Origin: a virus | Taxonomy: Duplodnaviria; Heunggongvirae; Uroviricota; Caudoviricetes | Length of the DNA: 13,687 bases | Virus record (IMG/VR): IMGVR_UViG_2526164652_000005 | Strand: one strand, 5' to 3' | In this document: positions 1-13,687 of the stretch, piece by piece | How positions within the stretch are numbered: position 1 is the stretch's first letter | Layout of the letters: every line of letters starts with the position of its first letter | Position numbers and translations under genes: made by a program | The notes under the pieces: model-generated | Told to the model about the DNA's origin: nothing | Databases searched by the model: none | What the model saw: only the letters and a program-made list of their open reading frames with translations

Positions 1-288
1 TCAATGGTTGGCGTCATTATCTTTTTCTCTTTCTGAACGTGAATATTGCGGTGGACGGTTCATCAGCTGTGGGGCAAGACGTTTTGCCACCTGAAGAATA
101 ACCACCACCGCAGCGGGAAGCATGAGCAAAACACCGAGAAAAATCATCAGAATCTGCACTTCTGGCCGAGAAAATGGCTCAGGCAGCGACAGGGAGTCGC
201 TTACCGACAGCAGAGCCACCGCCAGTAGCATCATTCCGATAAATTCCAGTATCAACACGCCTTTAGGCAATTTACCGATCGCGCGCAT
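1..288 (-). CDS. ybjC: small inner-membrane protein YbjC (95 aa), complete; stop codon at 1-3
   Basis: Translation matches remembered E. coli YbjC; hydrophobic two-helix profile; divergent from grxA as in E. coli. Confidence 0.8.
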   Translation of the reverse strand: MRAIGKLPKGVLILEFIGMMLLAVALLSVSDSLSLPEPFSRPEVQILMIFLGVLLMLPAAVVVILQVAKRLAPQLMNRPPQYSRSEREKDNDANH

Positions 289-447
289 ACGCTTCCCTCT
301 GCAAAGTGAGCCTTCAGTCTAAAACTTTTCACTGTATTGTGTTTAACAGTTATAGCTTTTAGCAATTAATGCAACAGGTTAAACCTACTTTCAGCGAATA
401 CATTTTAGCGTGATCATTACAGGCATAAATCTATGAGGAGAGAAATA
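289..447. promoter_or_regulatory. Divergent ybjC / grxA promoter region
   Basis: 159-bp AT-rich spacer between divergent starts; GAGGAG Shine-Dalgarno at 435-440 before the grxA ATG at 448. grxA is a known OxyR target, but I could not confidently delineate the OxyR motif by eye. Confidence 0.45.
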
Positions 448-705
448 ATGCAAACCGTTATTTTTGGTCGTTCGGGTTGCCCTTACTGTGTGCGTGCAAA
501 AGATCTGGCTGAGAAATTGAGCAATGAACGCGATGATTTTCAGTATCAGTATGTAGATATTCGTGCGGAAGGGATCACTAAAGAAGATCTACAACAAAAG
601 GCAGGTAAACCCGTAGAAACCGTGCCGCAGATTTTTGTCGATCAGCAACATATCGGCGGCTATACCGATTTTGCTGCATGGGTGAAAGAAAATCTGGACG
701 TCTGA
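448..705 (+). CDS. grxA: glutaredoxin 1 (85 aa)
   Basis: Near-identical to remembered E. coli GrxA (MQTVIFGRSGCPYCVRAKDL...), CPYC active site. The track ORF begins at an upstream in-frame ATG (433), but the SD at 435-440 supports ATG 448. Confidence 0.93.
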   Translation: MQTVIFGRSGCPYCVRAKDLAEKLSNERDDFQYQYVDIRAEGITKEDLQQKAGKPVETVPQIFVDQQHIGGYTDFAAWVKENLDV

Positions 706-714
706 TCGTCTGAC

Positions 715-747
715 AAGCCCTCGCGTTGAGGGCTTTACTGATTTTTT
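715..747 (+). terminator. Putative intrinsic terminator after grxA
   Basis: Stem aagccctc (715-722) / gagggctt (728-735) with 5-nt loop; T6 run at 742-747, not immediately adjacent to the stem. Confidence 0.4.
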
Positions 748-1112
748 CTGTGCTGTGGTTTAAACAAACTACTGATAAATAAGAAACACAGTGCCCCCAG
801 CGCACACCAGAACACCGCGCTTAGTAACCATGCCAGCTCTTGCCAGAATGAGCGCGTCGGTGAAAAAAACAGCCGCATAATGAGCATTGAACAGGGTGCC
901 GCCAGCATTGCGCCAAATAGAGGTTTCAGGACTTCTCTACGCTGTGAAAAGAAACTGGCAACAGCTCCAGGAAGAATGAAAAACAGCAAGCCGATTTCAG
1001 GATGCCCGGCAGCCCGAAAAGCGCCTTTCATGTGCGTCGCCAGAAAAAGGCACACCACAATGAAGAGGACAAAACAGCAGATTGCCCCCGCCCAACGTTG
1101 TTTATGTTTCAC
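735..1112 (-). CDS. ybjM: inner-membrane protein YbjM (125 aa)
   Basis: Translation matches remembered YbjM; multi-helix hydrophobic profile; conserved position between grxA and ybjL. Confidence 0.8.
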   Translation of the reverse strand: MKHKQRWAGAICCFVLFIVVCLFLATHMKGAFRAAGHPEIGLLFFILPGAVASFFSQRREVLKPLFGAMLAAPCSMLIMRLFFSPTRSFWQELAWLLSAVFWCALGALCFLFISSLFKPQHRKNQ

Positions 1113-1381
1113 TCGTTCCTCCTGACACTGCGTCTATCGAACACATTTTTCGCCAGTGTGGCGTTCAGTAAGATAAAGCCGCTTCGCATTCCATGCTAAT
1201 ATAGGCCAACGAAATTCATATAGCCGTTGATACCTAATGTGATTACACTAGTAAAATATATTGTTACTTTACTATCGTTTAGGTGCGCTGAATGAATCTG
1301 CGCCCTGAATTCTGGTAAAAAACATTATCGTAAATTACCATTTCTTTCAACAGCTTACTAGTAAACAAGAAGTTAGCCTCC

Positions 1382-3067
1382 GTGAATATAAACGTCGCCG
1401 AATTGTTAAATGGGAATTACATTCTGTTATTATTTGTGGTCCTCGCGCTTGGGCTATGTCTCGGAAAGTTACGACTTGGTTCGATCCAACTGGGTAATTC
1501 CATTGGCGTTTTAGTCGTATCGCTGTTATTAGGCCAACAACATTTCAGCATTAACACCGATGCGCTTAATCTTGGCTTTATGCTGTTTATTTTCTGCGTC
1601 GGGGTCGAAGCCGGACCGAACTTTTTTTCCATTTTTTTTCGCGATGGGAAAAATTACCTAATGTTAGCTCTGGTGATGGTTGGCAGTGCGCTGGTGATCG
1701 CCTTAGGGTTAGGTAAGCTGTTTGGCTGGGATATTGGCCTGACGGCCGGTATGTTAGCAGGCTCTATGACGTCGACACCGGTTCTGGTCGGTGCTGGCGA
1801 TACACTGCATCATTCCGGCATGGAAAGCAGGCAGCTCTCACTGGCACTGGATAATCTGAGCCTCGGGTATGCCTTAACCTATTTAATCGGTCTGGTGAGT
1901 TTGATTGTTGGTGCGCGTTACTTGCCGAAATTGCAGCATCAGGACTTACAGACCAGCGCCCAGCAAATCGCCCGCGAACGTGGCCTGGACACTGATGCCA
2001 ACCGTAAGGTTTATTTACCGGTGATCCGCGCCTATCGCGTCGGCCCGGAGCTGGTGGCCTGGACCGACGGCAAAAATCTGCGTGAACTGGGTATTTATCG
2101 ACAAACCGGCTGCTACATTGAACGTATTCGACGTAACGGGATTCTGGCAAATCCAGACGGTGATGCCGTGCTACAAATGGGCGATGAAATAGCGTTGGTA
2201 GGCTATCCCGACGCCCATGCCCGACTCGATCCCAGCTTCCGTAACGGTAAAGAAGTTTTCGATCGTGACCTTCTCGACATGCGTATCGTCACTGAAGAAG
2301 TGGTCGTTAAAAACCATAACGCTGTAGGTAAACGTCTCGCACAACTGAAGTTGACCGATCACGGTTGCTTCCTTAACCGCGTCATTCGTAGCCAGATTGA
2401 GATGCCGATAGATGACAACGTCGTGCTTAACAAAGGTGACGTTTTACAAGTCAGCGGTGATGCCCGTCGCGTAAAAACCATCGCCGATCGCATCGGCTTT
2501 ATCTCGATTCACAGCCAGGTCACTGACCTGCTGGCATTTTGCGCCTTCTTTGTTATTGGGCTGATGATCGGGATGATCACCTTCCAGTTCAGCACATTCA
2601 GTTTCGGCATGGGGAACGCTGCCGGGTTGTTATTCGCCGGAATTATGCTGGGCTTTATGCGTGCTAACCACCCGACCTTCGGTTACATTCCGCAAGGTGC
2701 ATTAAGCATGGTGAAAGAGTTCGGCTTGATGGTGTTTATGGCAGGCGTTGGTCTGAGCGCCGGTAGCGGTATTAATAACGGCCTGGGCGCGATTGGCGGT
2801 CAGATGTTGATTGCCGGATTAATTGTCAGTCTTGTGCCCGTGGTTATCTGTTTCTTGTTCGGTGCTTATGTATTGCGAATGAACCGCGCACTGTTGTTCG
2901 GCGCAATGATGGGCGCACGCACCTGCGCGCCGGCAATGGAGATCATCAGTGATACAGCTCGCAGTAACATCCCTGCGCTGGGCTATGCGGGCACCTACGC
3001 AATCGCCAACGTCCTGCTGACGCTGGCAGGGACAATCATCGTCATGGTATGGCCAGGATTAGGATAA
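1382..3067 (+). CDS. ybjL: putative transporter YbjL (561 aa), AAE-family permease with two central TrkA-C/RCK_C domains; GTG start
   Basis: Full-length match to remembered YbjL; membrane domains flank a soluble central region; synteny with ybjM and grxA. Confidence 0.88.
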
Positions 3068-3179
3068 AACTGAAGTTGCCCTGAAAATGAAATTTTTTTG
3101 CACAACCGCAGAACTTTTCCGCAGGGCATCAGTCTTAATTAGTGCCACTGCTTTTCTTTGATGTCCCCATTTTGTGGAG

Positions 3180-3222
3180 CCCATCAACCCCGCCATTTCG
3201 GTTCAAGGTTGATGGGTTTTTT
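3180..3222 (+). terminator. Putative intrinsic terminator downstream of ybjL
   Basis: 10-bp stem cccatcaacc (3180-3189) / ggttgatggg (3207-3216) followed directly by T6 (3217-3222). Confidence 0.5.
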
Positions 3223-3302
3223 GTTGCCTGAAATTTAAGCTGTTTAAAATCATGATGTTAGAAGCACTGTTTTTTAACGATGGCGACAAAATGGCGGCAG
3301 CG

Positions 3303-3521
3303 TCAAAGAGAGAGCGCCACCTGTCCTGATTTCATTGGATGCGGCTGAACCGGATTTGACTCTTTTGGCGTTGCAATCGAACGAACAAAAGTTTCATGGG
3401 TAACAAAAGTATGGCTGCAGTTAATGTTCTGGCACTGGTTGTAACGCTCTTTGGTCAATGAAGATACCTGAAAACTGCTGCGAGTATGGGCGGCACTTCC
3501 ACACAGTGGGCAAATCATCAT
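3303..3521 (-). CDS. ogr: Ogr/Delta-family zinc-finger late-gene transcriptional activator (72 aa)
   Basis: CPLCG...CQNINC zinc-finger motif and overall similarity to P2 Ogr. GGGAGA SD sits 9 nt upstream of the ATG at 3521; the track ORF starts at an upstream GTG (3554), which I judge less likely. Confidence 0.8.
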   Translation of the reverse strand: MMICPLCGSAAHTRSSFQVSSLTKERYNQCQNINCSHTFVTHETFVRSIATPKESNPVQPHPMKSGQVALSL

Positions 3522-3611
3522 TTTTCGAGTTCTCCCAATTTTTGCTAAATTCACAATAATGATACCGAATTATTCCATTTTGCAAACTTAAAAGTTCTCC
3601 ATTGCGAAGAA

Positions 3612-4712
3612 TCATTCCATTTCGAAATCATCAATCCTCACTTCAAGCTCCAGACTGGTCGTAAAACCATTATCCGGGCTTACGGTATGCGTCAGAGTCG
3701 TAATGGTCCATTCCGCATCATCTATCGGCTGTTTAAAGCCACTGACTTTCACTGGCATTTCCGTGTAGAGATCTGCCCGCCCTTCCGCCAGTTGTAACGA
3801 GAATGACGCAACGCCGCGTTGCAGGCGTTCCCACTGCATTTTCGCCGCTCGTTCGGTGTTGCTCCGGTTGGCATAAGTGCGATTAAGTACCAGCACGTTT
3901 TCATCCGTACCCACCAGGTAATCGCCCTGCTTCGCTTCCGGCTCTTTCTTCTGCTTCTTAGTCCTGCGCTTACGCTTCACCGTGGTGCTTTCTTTCTTCG
4001 CGGGTTCGCGGGTATGCAACCAGCTGGCAATTACGCCCGTGTAGGCTCCGCGATCTGCCAGGGTAAAGCGGTGACTGTCGCCGTCCTTACGTGTGATAGT
4101 GATAACCGGTAGTGGTTTACCGCTGGCGCTTTTACCCTGTCCCTGCCGGATGAATACCAGATTGCCATTTTTCACCGACGCAATAGCACCGTACTGGCGC
4201 GCCAGCCGCATCAGAAAACTGCCGTCACTCTCATTGGTCTGGTCTATATGCTCCACGGGTTTATCCGACAGGTCTTCACCCAATGCCATCTTCAGTTTGT
4301 GCCGCGCAGATATTTCCTTCACGACTTCCCCAACGGTGGTCTTGTGCCACGATTTTTCACGGCGGGTATTCAGCGTTTCACGAAAATCAGCACTTCGCGC
4401 CCGGATAGTCAGGCGGTCCGGTGCGCCAGTGTGTTCAATCTCGTCCACCGTGAATGCCCCTTTCGGGAAAAGCGGCTGCCCCTTCCACCCCAGCGCCAGC
4501 GTAATGACCGCACCACGGCGCGGCAGCACGATTTTTCCGTCGGCGTCGTCCAGCTCCAGATCAAGCTGGTCCGCTTCAAATCCCCGATTGTCCGTCAGCG
4601 TCAGACTCATCAGGCGGTTATCCAGCACAGTAGTGATATCCCTGCCCTCAATACTGATGCTGAATGCAGGAGTTTTGTTGCCTTTGTTAAGCAGTTCAGA
4701 GCTGAAATTCAC
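3612..4712 (-). CDS. D: P2 gpD-family tail protein (366 aa); GTG start overlapping the U stop (GTGA)
   Basis: Similarity to P2 gpD; conserved position between U and ogr; translational coupling to U. Confidence 0.85.
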   Translation of the reverse strand: MNFSSELLNKGNKTPAFSISIEGRDITTVLDNRLMSLTLTDNRGFEADQLDLELDDADGKIVLPRRGAVITLALGWKGQPLFPKGAFTVDEIEHTGAPDRLTIRARSADFRETLNTRREKSWHKTTVGEVVKEISARHKLKMALGEDLSDKPVEHIDQTNESDGSFLMRLARQYGAIASVKNGNLVFIRQGQGKSASGKPLPVITITRKDGDSHRFTLADRGAYTGVIASWLHTREPAKKESTTVKRKRRTKKQKKEPEAKQGDYLVGTDENVLVLNRTYANRSNTERAAKMQWERLQRGVASFSLQLAEGRADLYTEMPVKVSGFKQPIDDAEWTITTLTHTVSPDNGFTTSLELEVRIDDFEME

Positions 4713-5194
4713 GACAGCAGCCCTCCCACCGTTTTACTGATATCGCTTAATGCAGATGTTGCCGTGTCCTGCAGATTATTCAGCTGCGCACTGAGATCAC
4801 CGAACATATCGGACAGGGATTCATCCACCCGTTTGAGCGACAGGGTGAACTCAATCCGGCGCGGCATACCGTCGCGGAAAAACTCCGTTTTAGTCTGATT
4901 CAGTCCCTCAATCACATACATGCCGTAAATCGTGCCGCTGCCTTCAATCAGGGGCCATGCTTTCCCCTGTTCTGCCATCTGCTCAAGTGCCAGCAACGAC
5001 AGCCTGCCGCCTGTTATCTCCGGCATAAGAACACCGGAAAGCGTCAGCATGTCGTTGTCCGGTCCCAGAAACTGCGTGGACGGACGACGATTTACCCGGC
5101 TGTTAGCCGCATGTCGCCAGCTGCGTTGATACTGCAGTTCCTGATACGGCACGGTGCGCAGCATAAACACGTACAATCCCAGCACCATCATCAT
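4709..5194 (-). CDS. U: P2 gpU-family tail protein (161 aa)
   Basis: Similarity to P2 gpU (MMVLGL..., QRSWRH motif); ATGA start/stop overlap with the end of T. Confidence 0.85.
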   Translation of the reverse strand: MMMVLGLYVFMLRTVPYQELQYQRSWRHAANSRVNRRPSTQFLGPDNDMLTLSGVLMPEITGGRLSLLALEQMAEQGKAWPLIEGSGTIYGMYVIEGLNQTKTEFFRDGMPRRIEFTLSLKRVDESLSDMFGDLSAQLNNLQDTATSALSDISKTVGGLLS

Positions 5195-8100
5195 GCGTCG
5201 TATCCCCCCTGATCGCTGTAGTTACTCCTGGCTTTTGCCTTCAACCTGCGTTCACGTTCATCAAGCTGGCGGGCCACCTCCCGCGCAATATCCTGCGCAC
5301 TTTGTCCTGGCTGTGTCTGGATGATGATCTGCGTCGGTGCTTCAATCCGGTAAATGGGCGGCACAGTAGCTGCACGACTCACCATCGCTTCACCGCCTTT
5401 CGCGGGAAGCGCCAAAGGATGCAACGGTGGAAGCTCTGCTGGCGCGGCAGCAACGCCCATCATTCCGGCGACAACGGCAGCCAGTGCAGCTGTATTTCTC
5501 CGGCTGGTCACGTTTGCCGGGCCGTTAACAATTTCCGGCCCGTTTTCACCGACGATGCCAAACTGCCCACGCGGGATATAGCCGCCGCTGTCATACATAC
5601 CCGCAAAGCCATATCCCCATGACGGAAAATCACCCGATGGCATCATCACTTTACCGTCTGCATTCACCGTCGCAGGTTGCTGACTCGTCACGCTTTCCGG
5701 TAGTTTTGCCTTTGCGGCCTCTTTACTGACAATGCCGAGTTTCTCCAGCAACCAGGAAACGCCGGATTTCAGGGAGTCCAGCGGATGCATGACCATATTC
5801 AGCCCTTCCGCCAGTGCCTCCCCGAATCGCCGCCCCATTGCCGCTGCACTCTGCAGTTCGGCAGAGGTCGACTTAACGGGCGTCAGCAGATCAGTAAACC
5901 AGCCCCACAGCGCCTGTACTTTGTCGCCAATCCACTGAAACACGGGCTTAAGCGGTTCGAATGCAGCACTGATGGGACCTGCCGCCGCTTTGAATCCTTC
6001 CACCACGCCACCGAGAAATGCGGTGATGGGTTGCCAGTATTTCCAGACAACCAGCGCCACGCCCGCCAGTGCAGTAACCACAAGACCTATCGGACTGAGC
6101 AGAGCACCTAACAGACCAGATACGGCATACAGGGCAACGCGCAGCATCGCCAGCGGACCGGATGCCAGCACACGCAGCACCGCGCCTGCGGCAGCCAGTC
6201 CACCGCGTAGTGCTGCCAGTGGATTCATAAACATCACAGCAACCGCACGTAACCCGGATAATCCAGACCGCAAAAGTGCAACCGGCGCACCTGCTACCGT
6301 TTTCAGGACATTTCCCGTCAGTGATGCCGTGCGGCGCAAAGACGACAACGGCGCAGTAAGTAAACCTGCGGCGTTGCCCGATGAAGCAAGCCCGCGTCGC
6401 AGCAGTGCCTGTGGTGCGCCAGCCAGGACAACGCACTGCTGGTTCGAGTTACTGCTGCCGTAACGGAAGGTAACATTTTGATACCCAGCACAGAGAATCC
6501 CAGACGGATCACTGCCAGCGGCCCCAGCACTGCAGCCAGCGCCACCGCTAAGGTGCCGAGGCCCACGGTAACGGCAGCCACCACAGCGGCTACTTTCATC
6601 AGTGTGCCTGTCAGTTCCGGGTTAGCTTCCACCCAGCGACGCAACGCCCCTGTGACGCTTTTCACCGTGAACAGAATATCCATCAGCGGCTGGCGCAGCG
6701 TTTCGCCCAGGCTGCTGAAGGTGTTCTGCGCTCCGGTTTTGACCAGCAACCACTGAGCAGAAAGTGAGTCCTTGTTGATGTCGGATTCTTTCTGCATGGA
6801 ACCGAGCGCATCATTGCCCGTTGTCAGTTTTAGCTGGCGCTGCAGTTCCGGAAGGTTGTTTGCCAGTTTCGCTGCGTCATCGCCAAACTCTTTACCAAAC
6901 AACATGGTCATGGCAGACAGGCGCTTATCCTGCGGCAGTGCGTTCACCTTCTCCAGCACGCGCTGGATGGTTCCCATCGCATCCTTCGTCATCTGCTTTT
7001 CAATCACTTCAGGATTGAGTTTCAGCAGATTCATCCCTTCAAAGAAACTCTTGCTCTGCATGGTGGCAATGGACAATTCACGCACCATCGCGTTTGCTGC
7101 ACTGGCTGCAACCTCTGGCGCAGCGCCCAGTGTCAGGAAGGTGGAACCCAGCGCCGCCGCTTTACGATAATCCAGACGATCAGCCACACCGCCCAGGCGT
7201 TGCATGACATCAATGATGTCTACCCCTTTCGACATGGCGTTATCATCCAGATAGTTCAGCGCATCACCGAGCTGTTCAATATTGCGGGTAGGGATTTTGT
7301 AGAGCTGGGCGATTTTCCCCAGACTTTCTGACAGTTCATCCGCTGGCAGCTCAAAGGCTGTTGCCGCCTTTGCTGCCGTACTGGCGAAGGCCAGCAGGTC
7401 ACGTTTCTGGTCCTCCCAGCTGTCGTCAGGGTTTGCAACGTTCATACGCGCACCACCTTCAACCAGTGCAGCGAAGTCCACCGCACCGTTTTCCATCGGC
7501 AACTGTTCGCTGGCAGCTTTGATGGCATCCTGCATTTCATAAAAACGTGCAGTGCGGTTGCCATTATCGTCACGCAGACCATTGACCTGCTTTGTCACAC
7601 CTTTCATGGCATCTTCCATGCTGGTATAGCTTTTTACTGCCGCCATCACTGGCGTCCCCATTGCCAGCCCTGCCGCCGTGGTGGTGGCTCCGGCTCCTGC
7701 GATGCGATCGCGCACCTCCAGCGAACGGGCATAACTGGCACGCGCTGCATTCATCCTGCGCTGAGCTTCCCCCAGTCGCTTCAGCCGCGCCTCCTGTTTC
7801 GACAGTTCCTGGTTATAACGTGATGTTTCACGGGCTAAACGGGCAGTTGCTCCCGCATCATCTTTCGCAGAAATTCCCGCCCGGTACAGTTCTGCACGCA
7901 CAAGCGCCGTTTGCTTCTGCAAATATTTTTGTTGTTCTTCCAGGCGTTGGACTGCCAGCGTTTGCCGACCTAAAGCCACAAGGTGCCGTTGTGATGGTTG
8001 TTCCATCGCTTCCAGCTCAGAACTAAGCAAATTTGCCTTCTGTCTGGCATAGTTCAGCCTGTCGCCTAACTTTTTGTTATCGGCCTGCAGCTTGCGAAAT

Positions 8101-8264
8101 TTTTCCAGGCTGTTACCCGCCTGATTGAGTTGCTTTAATGCGTCACGGGAGTTTCTGATTGCGCCAGCCAGCTCTTTCGAACTGGCCTGTGCAGCACGGA
8201 ATGGGCGGGTGAGTTTGTCAACCGCATTAAGAATGACCTGCAGGCGCAGGTTATTATCACTCAT
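5191..8264 (-). pseudogene. T: Tail tape-measure protein gpT, reading frame disrupted: N-terminal ORF 6318-8264 and C-terminal ORF 5191-6348 in a different frame
   Basis: N-terminal ORF begins MSDNNLRLQ..., coiled-coil rich, P2 gpT-like. Its last ~35 codons are low-complexity out-of-frame-looking sequence. The other frame carries proline-terminated 21-22 aa repeats that continue to the U overlap and is open upstream to a stop at 6622-6624. Together these imply a -1 register change around 6380-6500. Confidence 0.7.
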
Positions 8265-8693
8265 CGTTAGCCCCGCTTCTCTGAATCGCTTTATACCGCC
8301 ATTCCAGCACTTCGGTCAGCGGCATAACGTCAGTAACGGATGGCGGCCAGTGAAAGATGGTGGCGATATCAGCCACCAGATCGTCAACCGTCAGGCTGTC
8401 GGTAAACCGGCAAGCACCGACTTCTTCAACAAAAAAGTGACAACCTCAACCGACATAGCGGTGAGATCTGCCGAGTCCATCTCTGCAATTTCTTGTGCGG
8501 TCAGTGCCGGACTGGAAATGCAGGGGATCACGGTCATCATCGCGTTCACATCCATATCCATAATGGCCTGCAGGCGTATACCGCGCAGCGCACCGGACTG
8601 CGGTTTACGCAGCACAATTTCGGTAATTTCTGTTTTACCGCGCATGATGGGGGTATCCAGTTGAATGGTCTTTTCAGTCTGCTTATCGCTCAT
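8257..8693 (-). CDS. E': E+E' fusion product via programmed -1 ribosomal frameshift (about 145 aa)
   Basis: The -1 frame is open from the slippery site to a TGA at 8257-8259, ending ...RSGANDE and overlapping the T start codon. Geometry matches the P2 E/E' arrangement (analogous to lambda G/GT). Confidence 0.55.
8391..8693 (-). CDS. E: P2 gpE-family tail assembly chaperone (100 aa)
   Basis: Position immediately upstream of T and similarity to P2 gpE; contains the slippery heptamer near its 3' end. Confidence 0.8.
   Translation of the reverse strand: MSDKQTEKTIQLDTPIMRGKTEITEIVLRKPQSGALRGIRLQAIMDMDVNAMMTVIPCISSPALTAQEIAEMDSADLTAMSVEVVTFLLKKSVLAGLPTA
8430..8436 (-). other. Slippery heptamer T_TTT_TTG for the E/E' -1 frameshift
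   Basis: Minus-strand codons ACT TTT TTG in the E frame (plus-strand caaaaaa at 8430-8436). Confidence 0.6.
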
Positions 8694-8747
8694 TTTATTG
8701 TCCTGTAAATTGGGTTCTGGCGCGGTATCCCGCGCCGTTCAGATACA

Positions 8748-9263
8748 TCAGAGGCCGAGGGCGTTGCGGTGCGCTTCCATCAGGTCCACACCGTCCACAA
8801 TTTCCACCATGTTGATAAGGTCCACTTCATAGAGCACCTCACCATTGATGGTCAGCTTCGCGTAGCTGTTGGTACTGGTCACTTTGGTGGTGTTGCTTTC
8901 GCCCGTCTTCCACTCGCCGGAATCCACTTCTTTGTGACGTCCTCGCACCACAAGCTCCACAGCCTGCACTTCCCCGGTATCGTCACGCTGGATAGAGCCA
9001 GTAAAGCGCAGCTGGATGCCATCCACAGTGGCTTTGCCCATCTGCTTAAACAGCAGCAGTTCAGTACCACCAATGGAAAATTCTGTGTCCAGAGCACTGT
9101 CATCAAGCCCCAGATCCACATCCACCGCCCCCGGCATTCCGCCGCCGCGATACTTCTCATATTTGCGGGTGAATTTCGGCAGCGTCAGCGACTCAACGAT
9201 CCCCTGCCAGTTGTTCCCGTCGTTAAACAGGTTCAGGTGTTTTAATTTGCGTGGTAAAGCCAT
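8748..9263 (-). CDS. FII: P2 gpFII-family major tail tube protein (171 aa)
   Basis: MALPRKLKHLNLFNDGNN... matches the P2 FII N-terminus; located between FI and E. Confidence 0.88.
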   Translation of the reverse strand: MALPRKLKHLNLFNDGNNWQGIVESLTLPKFTRKYEKYRGGGMPGAVDVDLGLDDSALDTEFSIGGTELLLFKQMGKATVDGIQLRFTGSIQRDDTGEVQAVELVVRGRHKEVDSGEWKTGESNTTKVTSTNSYAKLTINGEVLYEVDLINMVEIVDGVDLMEAHRNALGL

Positions 9264-9272
9264 GTTGTCCCC

Positions 9273-10445
9273 TTACGCGCTGACCTGGCTGGCGAAATTC
9301 ACCAGGTACTGATCGGTGATGCGCTGACGCAGCATCAGGTTTTCAAGTGGCGGCACTGGCGTGTAGTCGTAGTCGATAGTGAGTTTCCCGGCTTTCAGAG
9401 TGTCTTTGTCGTTCACCGACTCGTCCAGCCAGCAATCACCACCAATGAGATACCCCTGACTGACCAGGCTGCGCATTTTGGCGCGGATACCTTCGATAAT
9501 GTCGCGGGCCAGCGACGGATTCAGCGGTTTGTCCACTGCCCACATGTGCGCTTCTGCCATCGTGTCCATCAGTACCTGCGCCGTGCGGGTGTAGTTTTCG
9601 AAGGCAAAGAGCGGGTCATCGCTCAGACAGCGGGAACCCCAGAAGCGGAAACCGTCTTTGCGGATAAGCGTGGTAACGTCGTTCTGGTTAAGCAGACCTG
9701 CATCGGTTGCCGGGTCCTGCAGATCCCAGAACACATCAGCAGAAATTCCGGTGACACCGTTCACGCCCACGTTGGACAGGCTTTTGTGCCATCCGGTCTG
9801 CTCATCAATTTTGGCGCGCAGACCGAGCGCACGGGCGGTGGCATATGCCGTTGCTTCGGCATTCAGCACCGTGTCCCAGCCCGTAAAGTCAGGCCAGATC
9901 AGCATCCCTTCGCGCTGGCTGAAGTTTTCACGGTAAGTGATCGCCTCCTGTACCGTCTTGCAGCCATACGCTGACAGGTAAGCAAACCCACGCAGGCTTT
10001 GCGCCACGCTCAGCAACTCAGTCGCAACGGCTTTGTTATCGTGGCCTGGCACGCCGAGAATGCGCGGTTTAACGCCGAGCTGTGACTGGGCAGATAACAG
10101 GGCTTTCATACCTGTTTTTTTACCTTCAGCAGTCACTGCGCCGATGATATTGGTCGTGGTTTCGTCTTCCGTTTCACCCTGCGGCACACGCACAACAACG
10201 GTCACGGGTTTTGCCTGGTCAGCGATGGCATCCAGCGAACGGGCCAGAGTACCGGACTCACCCGCTTTACCGCTGGCAGTCAGCACATCAGTGATCAGCA
10301 CGGGTTTATTAAGAGGAAACATTTTTGCATCGGCATCATCGCCCGTGCAGACCATACCCACAATGGCGGTGCTCACCGTGGTAATGGATCGGGTGCCTTC
10401 GTTGACTTCAACAACGCGCACCCCGTGGTGGTAATCCTGAGCCAT
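9273..10445 (-). CDS. FI: P2 gpFI-family contractile tail sheath protein (390 aa)
   Basis: Strong similarity to P2 FI along its length (DYHHGV..., [13 protein letters not shown]..., [14 protein letters not shown]...). AGGAGG SD lies 9 nt upstream of the ATG. Confidence 0.9.
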
Positions 10446-10521
10446 AGTGGCGAACCTCCTGATTGGATTAGGCTTCGCCCTATGTTGAAGTGATTGTGCC
10501 TGACAAACAGCTAAGCGCAGT

Positions 10522-10539
10522 TGTACCGTTATTCATACA
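10522..10539 (-). promoter_or_regulatory. Candidate Ogr-dependent late promoter element (TGT-N12-ACA dyad) upstream of FI
   Basis: tgtaccgttattcataca has the TGT-N12-ACA dyad characteristic of P2/P4 late promoters and lies about 85 bp upstream of the FI start. Confidence 0.4.
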
Positions 10540-10587
10540 AAATGACGGTATTTGTCTGCTTGCAGGGATAATCAACATAATGCTGAT

Positions 10588-11160
10588 TCAGGGGGATTCA
10601 TTGCTCTTATTTGCCGGAAATTTTCTATAAATTGTGGAAACACCTACATCAAAAATCAGTGCAATACGCTGTCTTGATTCTCCGGCCTCGAGTAAACGTC
10701 CAATCTGTGCCCACTGTTCGGTGATCAACTTAGGACGGCGTCCACCTACTCTGCCTTTGGCGCGAGCTGCAGCCAGCCCCGCCTTGGTACGTTCAACTAT
10801 CAGTTCGCGCTCCATTTCAGCCAGGGCCCCCATGACATGAAAAAAGAAACGGCCCATTGGGGTACTGGTATCAATACTGTCAGTCAGGCTTCGGAAATTC
10901 ACGCCACGCTGGCGCAGCTCTTCTATCAGCGTAACGAGATGCCGCATACTGCGCCCCAACCTGTCCAGCTTCCAGACAACCAGAGTGTCACCTGCCGATA
11001 ATGTCCTGAGCAGTTTTTTCAGTCCCGGTCTGTCGGACTTAGTGCCACTGATTTTGTCCTCAAAAATCCGCTCACATCCCGCGCAGTTCAGTGCATTACG
11101 TTGCAAATCGGTGTTCTGGTCATTTGTTGACACGCGTACATAGCCAATAAGCATGATCAA
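10588..11160 (-). CDS. Serine-recombinase DNA invertase, Hin/Gin/Pin/Cin family (190 aa)
   Basis: Very high similarity to Hin/Pin: catalytic-serine motif GYVRVSTNDQ, conserved core, C-terminal helix-turn-helix. True start may be the second in-frame ATG. Confidence 0.9.
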   Translation of the reverse strand: MIMLIGYVRVSTNDQNTDLQRNALNCAGCERIFEDKISGTKSDRPGLKKLLRTLSAGDTLVVWKLDRLGRSMRHLVTLIEELRQRGVNFRSLTDSIDTSTPMGRFFFHVMGALAEMERELIVERTKAGLAAARAKGRVGGRRPKLITEQWAQIGRLLEAGESRQRIALIFDVGVSTIYRKFPANKSNESP

Positions 11161-11172
11161 TCCCCTGAATAA

Positions 11173-11472
11173 AAACCGGGGATGATGCCAGTTAGCCGTT
11201 ATCTCTGCATTTTCATAAACGTTGGTTTGGGAGAAGCGGCTAAAAGAAATGTAGGGACAGGGGCGAATCAGATACCTGATATGGGTAGTTTTATGCTTTC
11301 TGCTTCAGTTCCTGGATATCAAAAATTGCCATCCGGTTTAATTATTCAATGGGGGCCAATTGATGTTCCGCTGACGTCTCAGGACACAGTAACCTATTTT
11401 CCGATTGCATTTCCGAATAGATGTCTGCGGGTATTTGCGACTCAGGATTACACTCCCGGCAGTGCAAATGTT
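11173..11472 (+). pseudogene. Truncated variable tail-fibre C-terminal segment (alternative Sv'-type cassette), cut by IS1
   Basis: Reading frame open from 11173, passes through the crossover site and runs into the IS1 left end at 11472/11473; the last 8 codons and stop of the tracked ORF are IS1 sequence. Tail-fibre assignment is by context and a weak remembered resemblance ([14 protein letters not shown]). Confidence 0.4.
11210..11235. other. Candidate Hin-family crossover site (hix/gix/pix-like 26-bp imperfect palindrome)
   Basis: ttttcataaacg-tt-ggtttgggagaa; reverse complement ttctcccaaaccaacgtttatgaaaa resembles hixL TTCTTGAAAACCAAGGTTTTTGATAA. Lies between the invertase gene and the divergent tail-fibre fragment, inside the latter's reading frame. 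Confidence 0.4.
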
Positions 11473-11495
11473 GGTAATGCTGCCAACTTACTGAT
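11473..11495. repeat. IS1 left terminal inverted repeat
   Basis: ggtaatgctgccaacttactgat; matches the reverse complement of the right end with few mismatches. Confidence 0.85.
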
Positions 11496-11527
11496 TTAGT
11501 GTATGATGGTGATTTTAAGGTGCTTGC

Positions 11528-11803
11528 GTGGCTTCCATTTCCATCAGATGTCCTTCCTGCTCCGCTACTGAAGGCGTGGTGCGTAACGGCAAAAGCACTG
11601 CCGGACATCAGCGCTATCTCTGCTCTCATTGCCGTAAAACATGGCAACTACAGTTCACTTACACCGCCTCTCAGCCCGGTACGCACCAGAAAATCATTGA
11701 TATGGCCATGAATGGCGTCGGATGTCGCGCCAGTGCACGCATTATGGGCGTTGGCCTCAACACGGTTTTACGTCACTTAAAAAACTCAGGCCGCAGTCGG
11801 TAA
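11528..11803 (+). CDS. insA: IS1 InsA (91 aa)
   Basis: Matches remembered IS1 InsA ([23 protein letters not shown]...). Confidence 0.95.
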
Positions 11804-12225
11804 CCTCGCGCATACAACCGGGCAGTGATGTGATTGTCTGCGCTGAAATGGACGAACATTGGGGCTACGTCGGTGCTAAATCACGTCAGCGCTGGCTGTT
11901 TTACGCGTATGACAGGATACGGAGGACGGTTGTGGCGCACGTCTTCGGTGAACGCACTCTGGCCACACTGGAGCGTCTTCTGAGCCTGCTGTCGGCCTTT
12001 GAGGTCGTGGTATGGATGACGGATGGCTGGCCGCTGTATGAATCACGCCTGAAGGGAAAGCTGCACGTTATCAGCAAGCGTTACACTCAGCGCATTGAGC
12101 GACATAATCTGAATCTGAGACAACATCTGGCAAGGCTGGGACGGAAGTCACTGTCGTTCTCAAAATCGGTGGAGCTGCATGACAAGGTCATCGGGCATTA
12201 TCTGAACATAAAACACTATCAGTAA
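11722..12225 (+). CDS. insB: IS1 insB' frame; expressed as the InsAB' transposase by -1 frameshift at A6C (11779-11785)
   Basis: Matches remembered IS1 InsB; the ttaaaaaac motif lies in the insA/insB overlap. Confidence 0.9.
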
Positions 12226-12240
12226 GTTGGAGTCATTACC
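12218..12240. repeat. IS1 right terminal inverted repeat
   Basis: atcagtaagttggagtcattacc. Confidence 0.85.
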
Positions 12241-12242
12241 GT

Positions 12243-12551
12243 GTTCGTGAACTCGGTGATGCTAGTGTTCCTTTTTCGTTCGATGTTCATGCGATGATTT
12301 ATAGTGATGATGCACCATCATTAGAAAATCATCTGCATAAAGTCTTCAACGAAAAACAGGTCAATAAAATTAACTCACGAAAAGAGTTTTTCAACGTAAA
12401 TATTAAAGAAATTAAGTCTGTTATTGAAGATATGAACATCAACGCACAATGGACAATGTTTGCGGAAGCGAAAGAATATAGAGAGTCACTGGCGATTGAG
12501 CAAGAGCGCAAAGCAGCAACTTCCGCCAACGATGAACTGCATGTTGCTTAG
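12243..12551 (+). pseudogene. 3' fragment of a T5orf172-domain (GIY-YIG-like) protein gene, truncated at its 5' side by IS1
   Basis: Frame is open directly from the IS1 right end (...RVRELGDASVPFSFDVHAMIYSDDAPSLENHLHKVFNEKQVNKINSRKEFFNV...); this resembles the C-terminal T5orf172 motif. No start codon of its own until 12294. Confidence 0.5.
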
Positions 12552-12610
12552 CAATGTATGTTTCATAGTAATCACACATTGATTACTGGTTGTATATACA
12601 GTTAAATTTA

Positions 12611-12634
12611 GCCCTCTGATATGAGGGCTTTTTT
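12611..12634 (+). terminator. Intrinsic terminator-like hairpin immediately upstream of int
   Basis: Stem gccctc (12611-12616) / gagggc (12623-12628), 6-nt loop, then T6 (12629-12634). Confidence 0.5.
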
Positions 12635-13687
12635 ATGGCAGTACGAAAACTCACCACAGGAAAATGGCTTTGCGAATGTTACCCCGCCGGACGTAGTGGA
12701 CGTCGTGTGCGTAAACAATTCGCCACCAAAGGCGAAGCTCTGGCTTTTGAGCGTCACACGATGGAAGAAACCGAAGCAAAGCCCTGGCTGGGTGAATCAG
12801 TGGATCGTCGAACACTGAAAGACGTGGTTGAACTATGGTTCAAACTACATGGTAAATCTCTGACAGCTGGGCAGCATGTCTATGACAAATTGCTGTTGAT
12901 GGTTGACGCTCTGGGCAATCCTCTTGCAACCGATCTCACCTCTAAAATGTTTGCCCACTATCGAGATAAACGCCTGACAGGCGAGATCTACTTCAGCGAG
13001 AAATGGAAGAAAGGAGCAAGCCCGGTCACCATTAACCTGGAGCAAAGCTATCTAAGTAGTATTTTTAGCGAACTATCCCGTCTGGGCGAATGGTCGTATC
13101 CGAACCCACTGGAGAACATGCGAAAATTCACCATCGCAGAAAAAGAGATGGCATGGCTTACCCATGAGCAGATTGTTGAATTGCTGGCTGATTGCAAACG
13201 TCAGGACCCAATTCTGGCACTGGTAGTTAAGATATGCTTAAGCACAGGCGCACGCTGGCGTGAAGCCGTAAATCTTACTCGCTCACAGGTGACCAAATAC
13301 CGAATTACCTTTGTCAGAACGAAGGGGAAGAAAAACAGAAGCATCCCTATCAGTAAAGAGCTTTACGAAGAGATCATGGCGCTTGATGGGTTCAATTTCT
13401 TCACAGACTGCTATTTTCAATTTTTATCCGTGATGGAAAAAACGTCTATCGTGCTCCCTCGCGGTCAACTCACACACGTTCTGCGCCATACGTTTGCGGC
13501 GCACTTCATGATGTCGGGTGGAAACATTCTGGCCTTACAAAAAATTCTCGGACACCACGATATAAAAATGACTATGCGTTACGCACATCTGGCACCGGAT
13601 CATCTGGAAACGGCGCTCCGTTTCAATCCTCTGGCAACGCTGCCAAGTGGCGACAAAGTGGCGGCAGCGGTTGGCATTACCCCGTAA
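12635..13687 (+). CDS. int: P2-family tyrosine integrase (350 aa), complete; TAA at the window end
   Basis: Similarity to P2 Int (MAIKKLDDGRYEV... versus MAVRKLTTGKWLCE...); conserved catalytic region LSTGARW, RHTFAAHFM, LGHHDIKMTMRYAHL. Confidence 0.88.
   Translation: MAVRKLTTGKWLCECYPAGRSGRRVRKQFATKGEALAFERHTMEETEAKPWLGESVDRRTLKDVVELWFKLHGKSLTAGQHVYDKLLLMVDALGNPLATDLTSKMFAHYRDKRLTGEIYFSEKWKKGASPVTINLEQSYLSSIFSELSRLGEWSYPNPLENMRKFTIAEKEMAWLTHEQIVELLADCKRQDPILALVVKICLSTGARWREAVNLTRSQVTKYRITFVRTKGKKNRSIPISKELYEEIMALDGFNFFTDCYFQFLSVMEKTSIVLPRGQLTHVLRHTFAAHFMMSGGNILALQKILGHHDIKMTMRYAHLAPDHLETALRFNPLATLPSGDKVAAAVGITP

Follow-up and report, generated by a model that had tools for sequence, protein, structure and literature searches.

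The integrase gene at the end of the DNA stretch studied here (13,687 nucleotides, hereafter the window) raises the question of what once stood upstream of it. In phages P2 and 186 the immunity repressor occupies this position, as the first-pass annotation of the window correctly stated: the C gene of P2 lies directly upstream of int, 115 nt away, and the cI gene of 186 overlaps the start of int. In the window, the integrase is preceded by the 3' end of a gene with a T5orf172 (GIY-YIG-like) domain. That annotation proposed two origins for it, either a non-canonical module next to int in the prophage itself, or a second integrative element, comprising both the integrase and the T5orf172 gene, that IS1 had fused to a P2-like tail remnant. 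The comparisons described here make it very likely that the window holds a decayed 186-like prophage with an ancestral cI-SNIPE-int module, the SNIPE gene of which was destroyed by an IS1-associated deletion of about 25 kb. The features on which the argument rests are, in the order of the window:

1382-3067, + strand: ybjL (aspartate:alanine antiporter), chromosomal flank (Pfam Asp-Al_Ex and TrkA_C)
3212-3236, no strand assigned: tail-side att core ATGGGTTTTTTGTTGCCTGAAATTT, 25 nt (shared 14-mer and flanking sequence)
3303-10445, - strand: late-gene block with ogr, D, U, T (frameshifted), E/E', tube and sheath (ORF list and colinearity)
10588-11160, - strand: serine invertase (Pin/Cin-like) of the tail-fibre inversion system (Pfam Resolvase and HTH_7)
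11182-11472, + strand: tail-fibre C-terminal cassette (gp53-like) of the invertible region, cut by IS1 (Pfam Gp53-like_C)
11473-12240, + strand: IS1, 768 bp, insA/insB, deletion scar (terminal inverted repeats, ORFs, call in an identical contig)
12243-12551, + strand: 3' remnant of SNIPE/PD-lambda-1, codons 457-558 and stop (translation, Pfam, PADLOC, identity to the L73 protein)
12579-12607, + strand: candidate int promoter TTGATT-17-TTAAAT, directly upstream of the hairpin (by eye and alignment)
12610-12634, + strand: terminator-like hairpin, 7-bp stem, 6-nt loop, T run to the int ATG (terminator scan and RNA fold)
12635-13687, + strand: tyrosine integrase of a 186-like prophage, 350 aa, intact (Pfam Int_N and Phage_integrase)

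The frame at 12243-12551 encodes 102 amino acids and a stop codon, without internal stops. The earlier domain call is confirmed, its coordinates being exact and both Pfam matches lying above the curated cut-offs, and the HMM search points to no different domain. The MUG113 profile (PF13455) scores 50.5 bits against a cut-off of 22.3 and is matched over positions 13-73 of 73, and the T5orf172 profile (PF10544) scores 34.6 bits against a cut-off of 20 over positions 30-100 of 101. Since the latter is covered only from position 30, the frame is a 3' remnant from which the start of the domain is missing; what it keeps of the T5orf172/GIY-YIG nuclease domain is the C-terminal two-thirds, together with the C-terminal tail of the protein. 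The PD-Lambda-1 profile of PADLOC is matched with E = 8.9e-45 at positions 387-481 of 491. NCBIfam has no specific family for the remnant or for the full-length protein and returned only sub-threshold coiled-coil noise.

The genome closest to the int-side piece is that of E. coli L73 (99.9% identity), where the remnant forms the end of an ORF of 558 amino acids. All 102 residues are identical to residues 457-558 of this protein, such that the remnant represents the last 18%, or about one fifth, of the gene. In view of this complete identity to a SNIPE-type protein, a generic T5orf172 homing-endonuclease-like gene was rejected as the source. RefSeq names the L73 protein "DUF4041 domain-containing protein" and, more recently, "SNIPE associated domain-containing protein". 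It has a hydrophobic N-terminal helix (residues 4-23, mean Kyte-Doolittle value 2.99), DUF4041 at 267-322 (E = 3.1e-12) and T5orf172/MUG113 at 427-520, and it matches the PADLOC PD-Lambda-1 profile with E = 4.7e-120, the profile aligning only from residue 114.

PD-lambda-1 was obtained in a functional screen of E. coli DNA (Vassallo et al. 2022) and now goes by the name SNIPE (Saxton et al. 2025, bioRxiv 10.1101/2025.11.03.685801). According to the latter work, SNIPE is a single-gene defence in which a transmembrane helix and a coiled coil precede DUF4041 and a GIY-YIG (T5orf172) nuclease; it resides in the inner membrane and cleaves the DNA of incoming siphoviruses, lambda included, at injection. 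The 558-aa relative shares this order of transmembrane helix, coiled coil, DUF4041 and C-terminal GIY-YIG/T5orf172 domain. It is longer at the N-terminus than the characterised PD-lambda-1, a shorter homologue, which is consistent with the N-terminal variability described among SNIPE homologues (bioRxiv 10.1101/2025.11.03.685801). By its sequence, the 558-aa variant is a member of the SNIPE family, and its defence function would be the one known from the characterised homologue.

Little of this architecture survives in the window. The remnant begins at residue 457, past the ...GHVYII...VYKIGMTRRLEPLDR stretch of the full-length relative, and thereby lacks the GIY and YIG strands and the conserved Arg of the T5orf172 domain. 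DUF4041 and the transmembrane anchor, both present in the intact relative, are likewise gone, as are the original promoter and start codon. All three SNIPE domains are necessary for defence (bioRxiv 10.1101/2025.11.03.685801). Because several of them are lost here, we read the remnant as a pseudogene that is almost certainly inert and predicted to have no defence activity.

The surroundings of the remnant identify the element. P2/186-type late genes, ogr, an integrase and the att half-sites of one chromosomal site are all present, and complete immunity, replication and head modules are missing. The window, which is Shigella flexneri DNA, holds a decayed 186-like (P2-family; Peduoviridae) prophage whose insertion site lies between ybjL and rcdA. 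In prophage-free E. coli this pair of genes is adjacent, and the homology to the window ends at 3225-3237; in the element, ybjL adjoins the tail end and rcdA the int end. The sequence past 13687, which the first-pass annotation had suggested examining, was read from a window-identical contig (L008): an int-side att copy downstream of int, at 7128-7152 of that contig, agrees with the tail-side core in 22 of 25 bases. The integrase lies directly downstream of the remnant on the same strand, and the window ends exactly with its stop codon. Its sequence shares 56% identity with the Int of phage 186, and exactly the same protein occurs in intact 186-like prophages (L004-L007).

The complete prophage of L73 shows what the element would have contained. 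From ybjL it reads ogr-D-U-T-E-FII-FI-invertase-fibres-baseplate-lysis-head-Q, then hotspot genes, A-dam-...-cII-apl, cI-SNIPE-int and finally rcdA. The late-gene block of the window is colinear with this prophage at 97.1% identity and with that of FDAARGOS_1248 at 99.5%. The tape-measure gene T has lost 4 bp at about position 6422, one GCCA unit, which shifts its frame. The equivalent of the gp53-like cassette is intact in L73, where tail-fibre assembly and fibre genes follow it. With apl and nearly all other phage genes gone, the element cannot excise as a phage.

The full-length gene was recovered from relatives, as had also been proposed, and its neighbours are cI and int. The intact order is apl on the - strand, followed on the + strand by cI (198 aa), SNIPE (558 aa), int (350 aa), about 105 bp and rcdA. 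It is found in E. coli L73, PA45B and DG351-2, in a Logan contig with an identical integrase and in the record of phage vB_EcoM-813R9, the cI product of the relatives being a 186-type CI by Pfam. In the record of Klebsiella phage KP12, int is directly followed by ogr and D; this is the phage (attP) form, which places SNIPE inside the phage genome. The first of the two proposed origins, a non-canonical module next to int, is therefore borne out by intact relatives at the same site, which read cI - DUF4041/T5orf172 - int on one strand, and no relative was found to combine an ordinary repressor-int arrangement with this gene elsewhere. The SNIPE gene is cargo of the 186-like prophage itself, not part of a foreign element.

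By megablast the integrase occurs in 1135 of 5426 complete E. coli genomes, and in 165 of them the match covers the remnant too. The figure of 165 also holds for a coverage of at least 80% of a query running from the end of cI to the start of int; all of these matches carry SNIPE, and among the SNIPE-slot matches listed, six out of six lie between annotated CI and integrase genes. The context called unusual in the first reading is thus unusual relative to P2 and 186, but not within this integrase family. A 63-aa YdcA-like gene fills the slot in 593 E. coli genomes (those covering at least 80% of a query that spans this gene and the start of int), for example in VTB97584v, 98208, BL21/Rosetta2, L006 and L007. 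In Ec1117 the slot holds a second, long CI-like protein and a KAP NTPase with a match to PDC-S20, a PADLOC candidate, and other contents are a long CI-like protein together with a protein of 314-324 aa of no known type, once with ISKox3. In every E. coli prophage of this integrase family that we inspected, one gene or more separates cI from int, and across the slot variants homology resumes at window positions 12552-12596, just past the SNIPE stop codon. A second slot separates int from att and is occupied by DUF4917 (PADLOC candidate PDC-S21) in 98208 and by a 110-aa ORF in BL21. Phage ESSI2_ev040 is a more distant relative, its int showing about 75% DNA identity; there int comes straight after cI, and the cargo, an Abi-family gene, stands after int.

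The loss of the SNIPE gene is marked by the IS1 copy. This has 23-nt inverted repeats at 11473-11495 and 12218-12240 and ORFs of 91 and 167 aa; a DDE_Tnp_IS1 call on the IS1 ORF of the identical contig L008 and IS1-family annotation on the matches agree with the assignment. The remnant begins 2 nt past the right inverted repeat, so that IS1 joins the truncated tail-fibre cassette to SNIPE codon 457. The 9-nt flanks differ (GCAAATGTT and GTGTTCGTG), and the absence of a target-site duplication fits an IS1-mediated adjacent deletion or IS1-IS1 recombination, not a simple insertion. Window positions 1-11283 are colinear with 655-11941 of the L73 locus at 97.1% identity, and 12240-13687 with 37360-38807 at 99.93%. 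It follows from this colinearity on both sides that IS1 stands in place of about 25 kb, equivalent to roughly 12130-37359 of the L73 locus, from the tail-fibre region to SNIPE codon 456.

An exact-protein look-up of the integrase led to the same junction in S. flexneri contigs. The K-272 contig is 100% identical to the window over 6635-13687 and the 89-141 chromosome carries the junction at 99.99% identity, while the contigs of at least 20 short-read assemblies end inside IS1 at the remnant junction. A query spanning the junction (window 10400-12700) was covered to 80% or more in no complete E. coli genome of the collection, and the exact IS1/SNIPE junction had no match among contigs representing one genome per species. 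We also considered NT1F34, which has IS1 beside SNIPE, as a precursor. It was rejected, because its IS1 separates cI from a SNIPE gene that is still intact, and a separate D'-cII' deletion is present; the NT1F34 insertion is an independent event.

Three other explanations were weighed against this one. An origin of the integrase and the T5orf172 gene in a separate integrative element outside the P2 family, such as a defence island or a satellite, which IS1 fused to the tail remnant, would agree with the rearrangement implied by an IS1 without target duplication, and T5orf172 domains are frequent in island cargo. We nevertheless consider it very improbable, given that the integrase is related to 186 Int and identical to that of complete 186-like prophages, that the tail-side and int-side att half-sites are the halves of one chromosomal site, and that SNIPE is present in all the well-covered E. 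coli matches, between CI and the integrase in the six listed. The ybjL and rcdA flanks, neighbours at the empty site, and the colinearity with an intact prophage speak against the same proposal, which had been the second origin offered by the first-pass annotation. Even less credible, to the point of being nearly dismissed, is the idea that the remnant is still functional, with an 85-aa ORF at 12294-12551 read by outward transcription from IS1 to yield either a truncated nuclease fragment or a dominant-negative or regulatory peptide. Gene callers do predict this ORF, with MUG113/T5orf172 matches, the junction is kept in many S. flexneri assemblies, and the equivalent of the catalytic Glu is probably retained in the SLENHLH stretch, as suggested by the offset of the PADLOC profile. 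Yet the motifs and domains listed above are gone, no promoter-like site lies upstream of the ORF (the sole + strand match, at 12450-12477, is inside it), and neutral scars are expected to persist in a clonal pathogen lineage. The 85-aa ORF is most likely an artefact of gene calling.

The third explanation is a tandem double lysogen, with two head-to-tail prophages between ybjL and rcdA and an IS1 deletion that ran from the tail-fibre region of one 186-like prophage into the SNIPE gene of the second, such that the tail remnant and the truncated SNIPE with int come from different prophages of the same family. FDAARGOS_1248 has two tandem prophages at exactly this site, the int of one adjoining the ogr of the next. 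In addition, the best relatives differ between the two sides of IS1: identity to L73 is 97.1% on the tail side and 99.93% on the int side, and the best match of the tail side, FDAARGOS_1248 at 99.5%, has a YdcA-like gene in the slot rather than SNIPE. The mosaicism of P2-like phages, however, accounts for this difference in identity without a second prophage, a single deletion of about 25 kb is a simpler assumption than the roughly 60 kb that two prophages would require, and no precursor was found. We regard the tandem arrangement as unlikely and assume a single mosaic parent. The main conclusion is unchanged in either case, because SNIPE stands between cI and int of a 186-like prophage in both.

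For a single decayed 186-like prophage, the following course of events is proposed. Before the decay, the lysogeny module would have read pL, cI, SNIPE, hairpin, int and att, and SNIPE, made together with the repressor, may have shielded the host, and so the prophage, from incoming siphoviruses. The IS1-associated deletion would then have run from the tail-fibre cassette across the genes for head, replication and immunity as far as SNIPE codon 456. IS1, the last 102 codons of SNIPE, and int behind a leader of its own would have remained.

The arrangement can be compared with a number of known systems. With phage 186 it shares the integrase family, the 186-type CI, Apl and CII of the relatives and the face-to-face pR/pL-like promoters; 186 itself has orf69 between int and attP. 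Relative to 186 and P2, the cI-int interval of the present integrase family contains in addition a cargo gene, followed by a promoter-like element and a hairpin. Genes for defence or exclusion in a lysogeny module are also known from lambda, where rexAB stands behind cI and is expressed with the repressor, and from lactococcal and streptococcal phages, where Sie2009 and Ltp, encoded between int and the repressor, are membrane-associated and block DNA injection. The likeness of rexAB, Sie2009 and Ltp to SNIPE is in position and logic only, the proteins being unrelated.

Within the P2 family, the classic defence hotspots are the gpA-gpQ region, where old and tin are found, and the tail-gene site, which holds fun (Rousset et al. 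2022, PMC9122126), and the region from integrase to primase is already listed as a minor one (NAR 2026, PMC13586616). The seven P2-borne systems of the Vassallo preprint were assigned to the gpA-gpQ and fun loci; its text does not give the genomic position of PD-lambda-1 in its source genome, and the SNIPE preprint (bioRxiv 10.1101/2025.11.03.685801) states nothing on the genomic context of SNIPE. Here, too, the cargo of a variable slot in a P2-family prophage is a defence gene, but the slot is narrower, being the interval that separates cI from int within the lysogenic operon. The SNIPE family, its mechanism and the presence of defence cargo near int in P2-like prophages are already known.

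The leader of int deserves separate consideration. RNA folding of 12552-12660 gives z = -3.5, and a likely Shine-Dalgarno sequence of int, GAGGG, lies within the 3' arm of the hairpin. The hairpin is kept as two pairing-preserving variants in nine loci with differing cargo, and it is part of the conserved int module, not of the cargo. In L73 it is the sole + strand terminator-like site between pL and int. The element at 12579-12607 was not detected by the consensus promoter scan; its counterpart in the YdcA-type relatives is TTGACA-16-TAAAAT. Further upstream in L73, face-to-face pR/pL-like promoters precede cI, as in 186, and cI and SNIPE are separated by 20 nt with no predicted terminator between them. 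From this spacing and the lack of a predicted terminator, we infer that SNIPE is co-transcribed with cI and would hence be constitutive in lysogens.

Taken jointly, these elements allow a more general reading, which we put forward tentatively and hold to be possible but rather doubtful: that the cI-int gap is a purpose-built cargo slot expressed in lysogens, with int insulated by the hairpin, and that this reflects a general rule of wiring to the repressor. The slot cargo would be carried on the repressor transcript, from which the hairpin and its T run would shield int while burying its Shine-Dalgarno sequence. An int mRNA starting at the promoter-like element would begin within the 5' arm of the hairpin, and only that transcript could be translated. 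DUF4041 homologues are found between cI and int in the Streptococcus phages EJ-1 and Javan523, and this cI - DUF4041 - int order in unrelated phages could mean that injection-blocking defences are generally wired to the repressor. The promoter-like element with the hairpin before int and the Streptococcus gene order are mildly new observations in their own right, and neither concerns the remnant.

For annotation, the 85-aa T5orf172/MUG113 ORF of S. flexneri (K-272, 89-141 and many short-read assemblies) is to be read as a SNIPE pseudogene left by an IS1 deletion, and the element that carries it as a non-inducible 186-like prophage remnant between ybjL and rcdA. For this integrase family, the published integrase-primase hotspot can be placed more precisely, in the cI-int interval, and the window adds one more case of IS-driven loss of a prophage-borne defence in Shigella.

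In the window, the int gene is preceded by a conserved leader.

12579-12634: conserved int leader; promoter-like element, then hairpin, then T run

The 5' part of the leader carries the promoter-like TTGATT-17-TTAAAT, the counterpart of which is TTGACA-16-TAAAAT in the relatives having a YdcA-like gene in the cI-int slot. The hairpin has a 7-bp stem, and the T run downstream of it reaches up to the int ATG, while GAGGG, the likely Shine-Dalgarno sequence of int, is located within the 3' arm. The pairing is preserved in two variants of the hairpin, AGCCCTC..GAGGGCT and TGCTCTC..GAGGGCA. A possible role of the leader is to stop the transcript that runs through cI and the cargo and to control the translation of int.

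The phage part of the window shows further features.

10588-11472: Pin/Cin-like invertase and gp53-like tail-fibre C-terminal cassette, opposite orientations
6318-8264 and 5191-6348, minus strand: tape-measure gene, split ORFs; frameshift at ~6422

The tail-fibre cassette is cut by IS1. The stretch 11284-11472 is divergent from the intact prophage of E. coli L73, which would be expected if the segment is invertible and carries alternative cassettes for host range. The tape-measure gene is frameshifted because one GCCA unit is lost at ~6422, (GCCA)2 being found in the window vs (GCCA)3 in L73 and E. coli FDAARGOS_1248. The prophage remnant has thus been inactivated by a second lesion, independent of the first.

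A prophage of the same type has decayed independently in E. coli NT1F34 (L023 2429-7592). Most of the phage is removed, with a D'-cII' deletion junction, and the SNIPE gene is intact, IS1 being inserted between cI and SNIPE. Outside the window, two S. flexneri contigs (L008/L009, 9921-11267) have a transposase of the IS4 family downstream of ybjI, predicted as two separate ORFs (Nterm_IS4 and DDE_Tnp_1), between ybjI and the following gene on the rcdA side, which is a further sign of the IS load at the locus.

FDAARGOS_1248 (L024 1-36675) harbors a tandem pair of 186-like prophages between ybjL and rcdA, with ~165 bp separating int of the first prophage from ogr of the next. Tandem lysogeny therefore occurs at this att site.

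Some relatives encode longer CI-like proteins (292-307 aa).

L019 1013-3479; L005 4018-5919; L022 294-2128: long CI-like protein and next gene

Both of the proteins scanned against Pfam (304 and 307 aa) contain two Phage_CI_repr HTH stretches. The next gene encodes either a KAP NTPase (PADLOC candidate PDC-S20) or an unannotated 314-324-aa protein; in Ec1117, the pair is located behind a normal 189-aa cI. The two genes may constitute a repressor-like sensor and its effector.

Homologues of DUF4041/SNIPE are also present in unrelated temperate phages of Gram-positive bacteria.

L029 800-4291: Streptococcus phage Javan523, homologue locus
L030 577-4803: prophage EJ-1, homologue locus

In both, the homologue is flanked by a cI-like repressor and int, all on the same strand, and the repressor-SNIPE-int order thus recurs across phyla.
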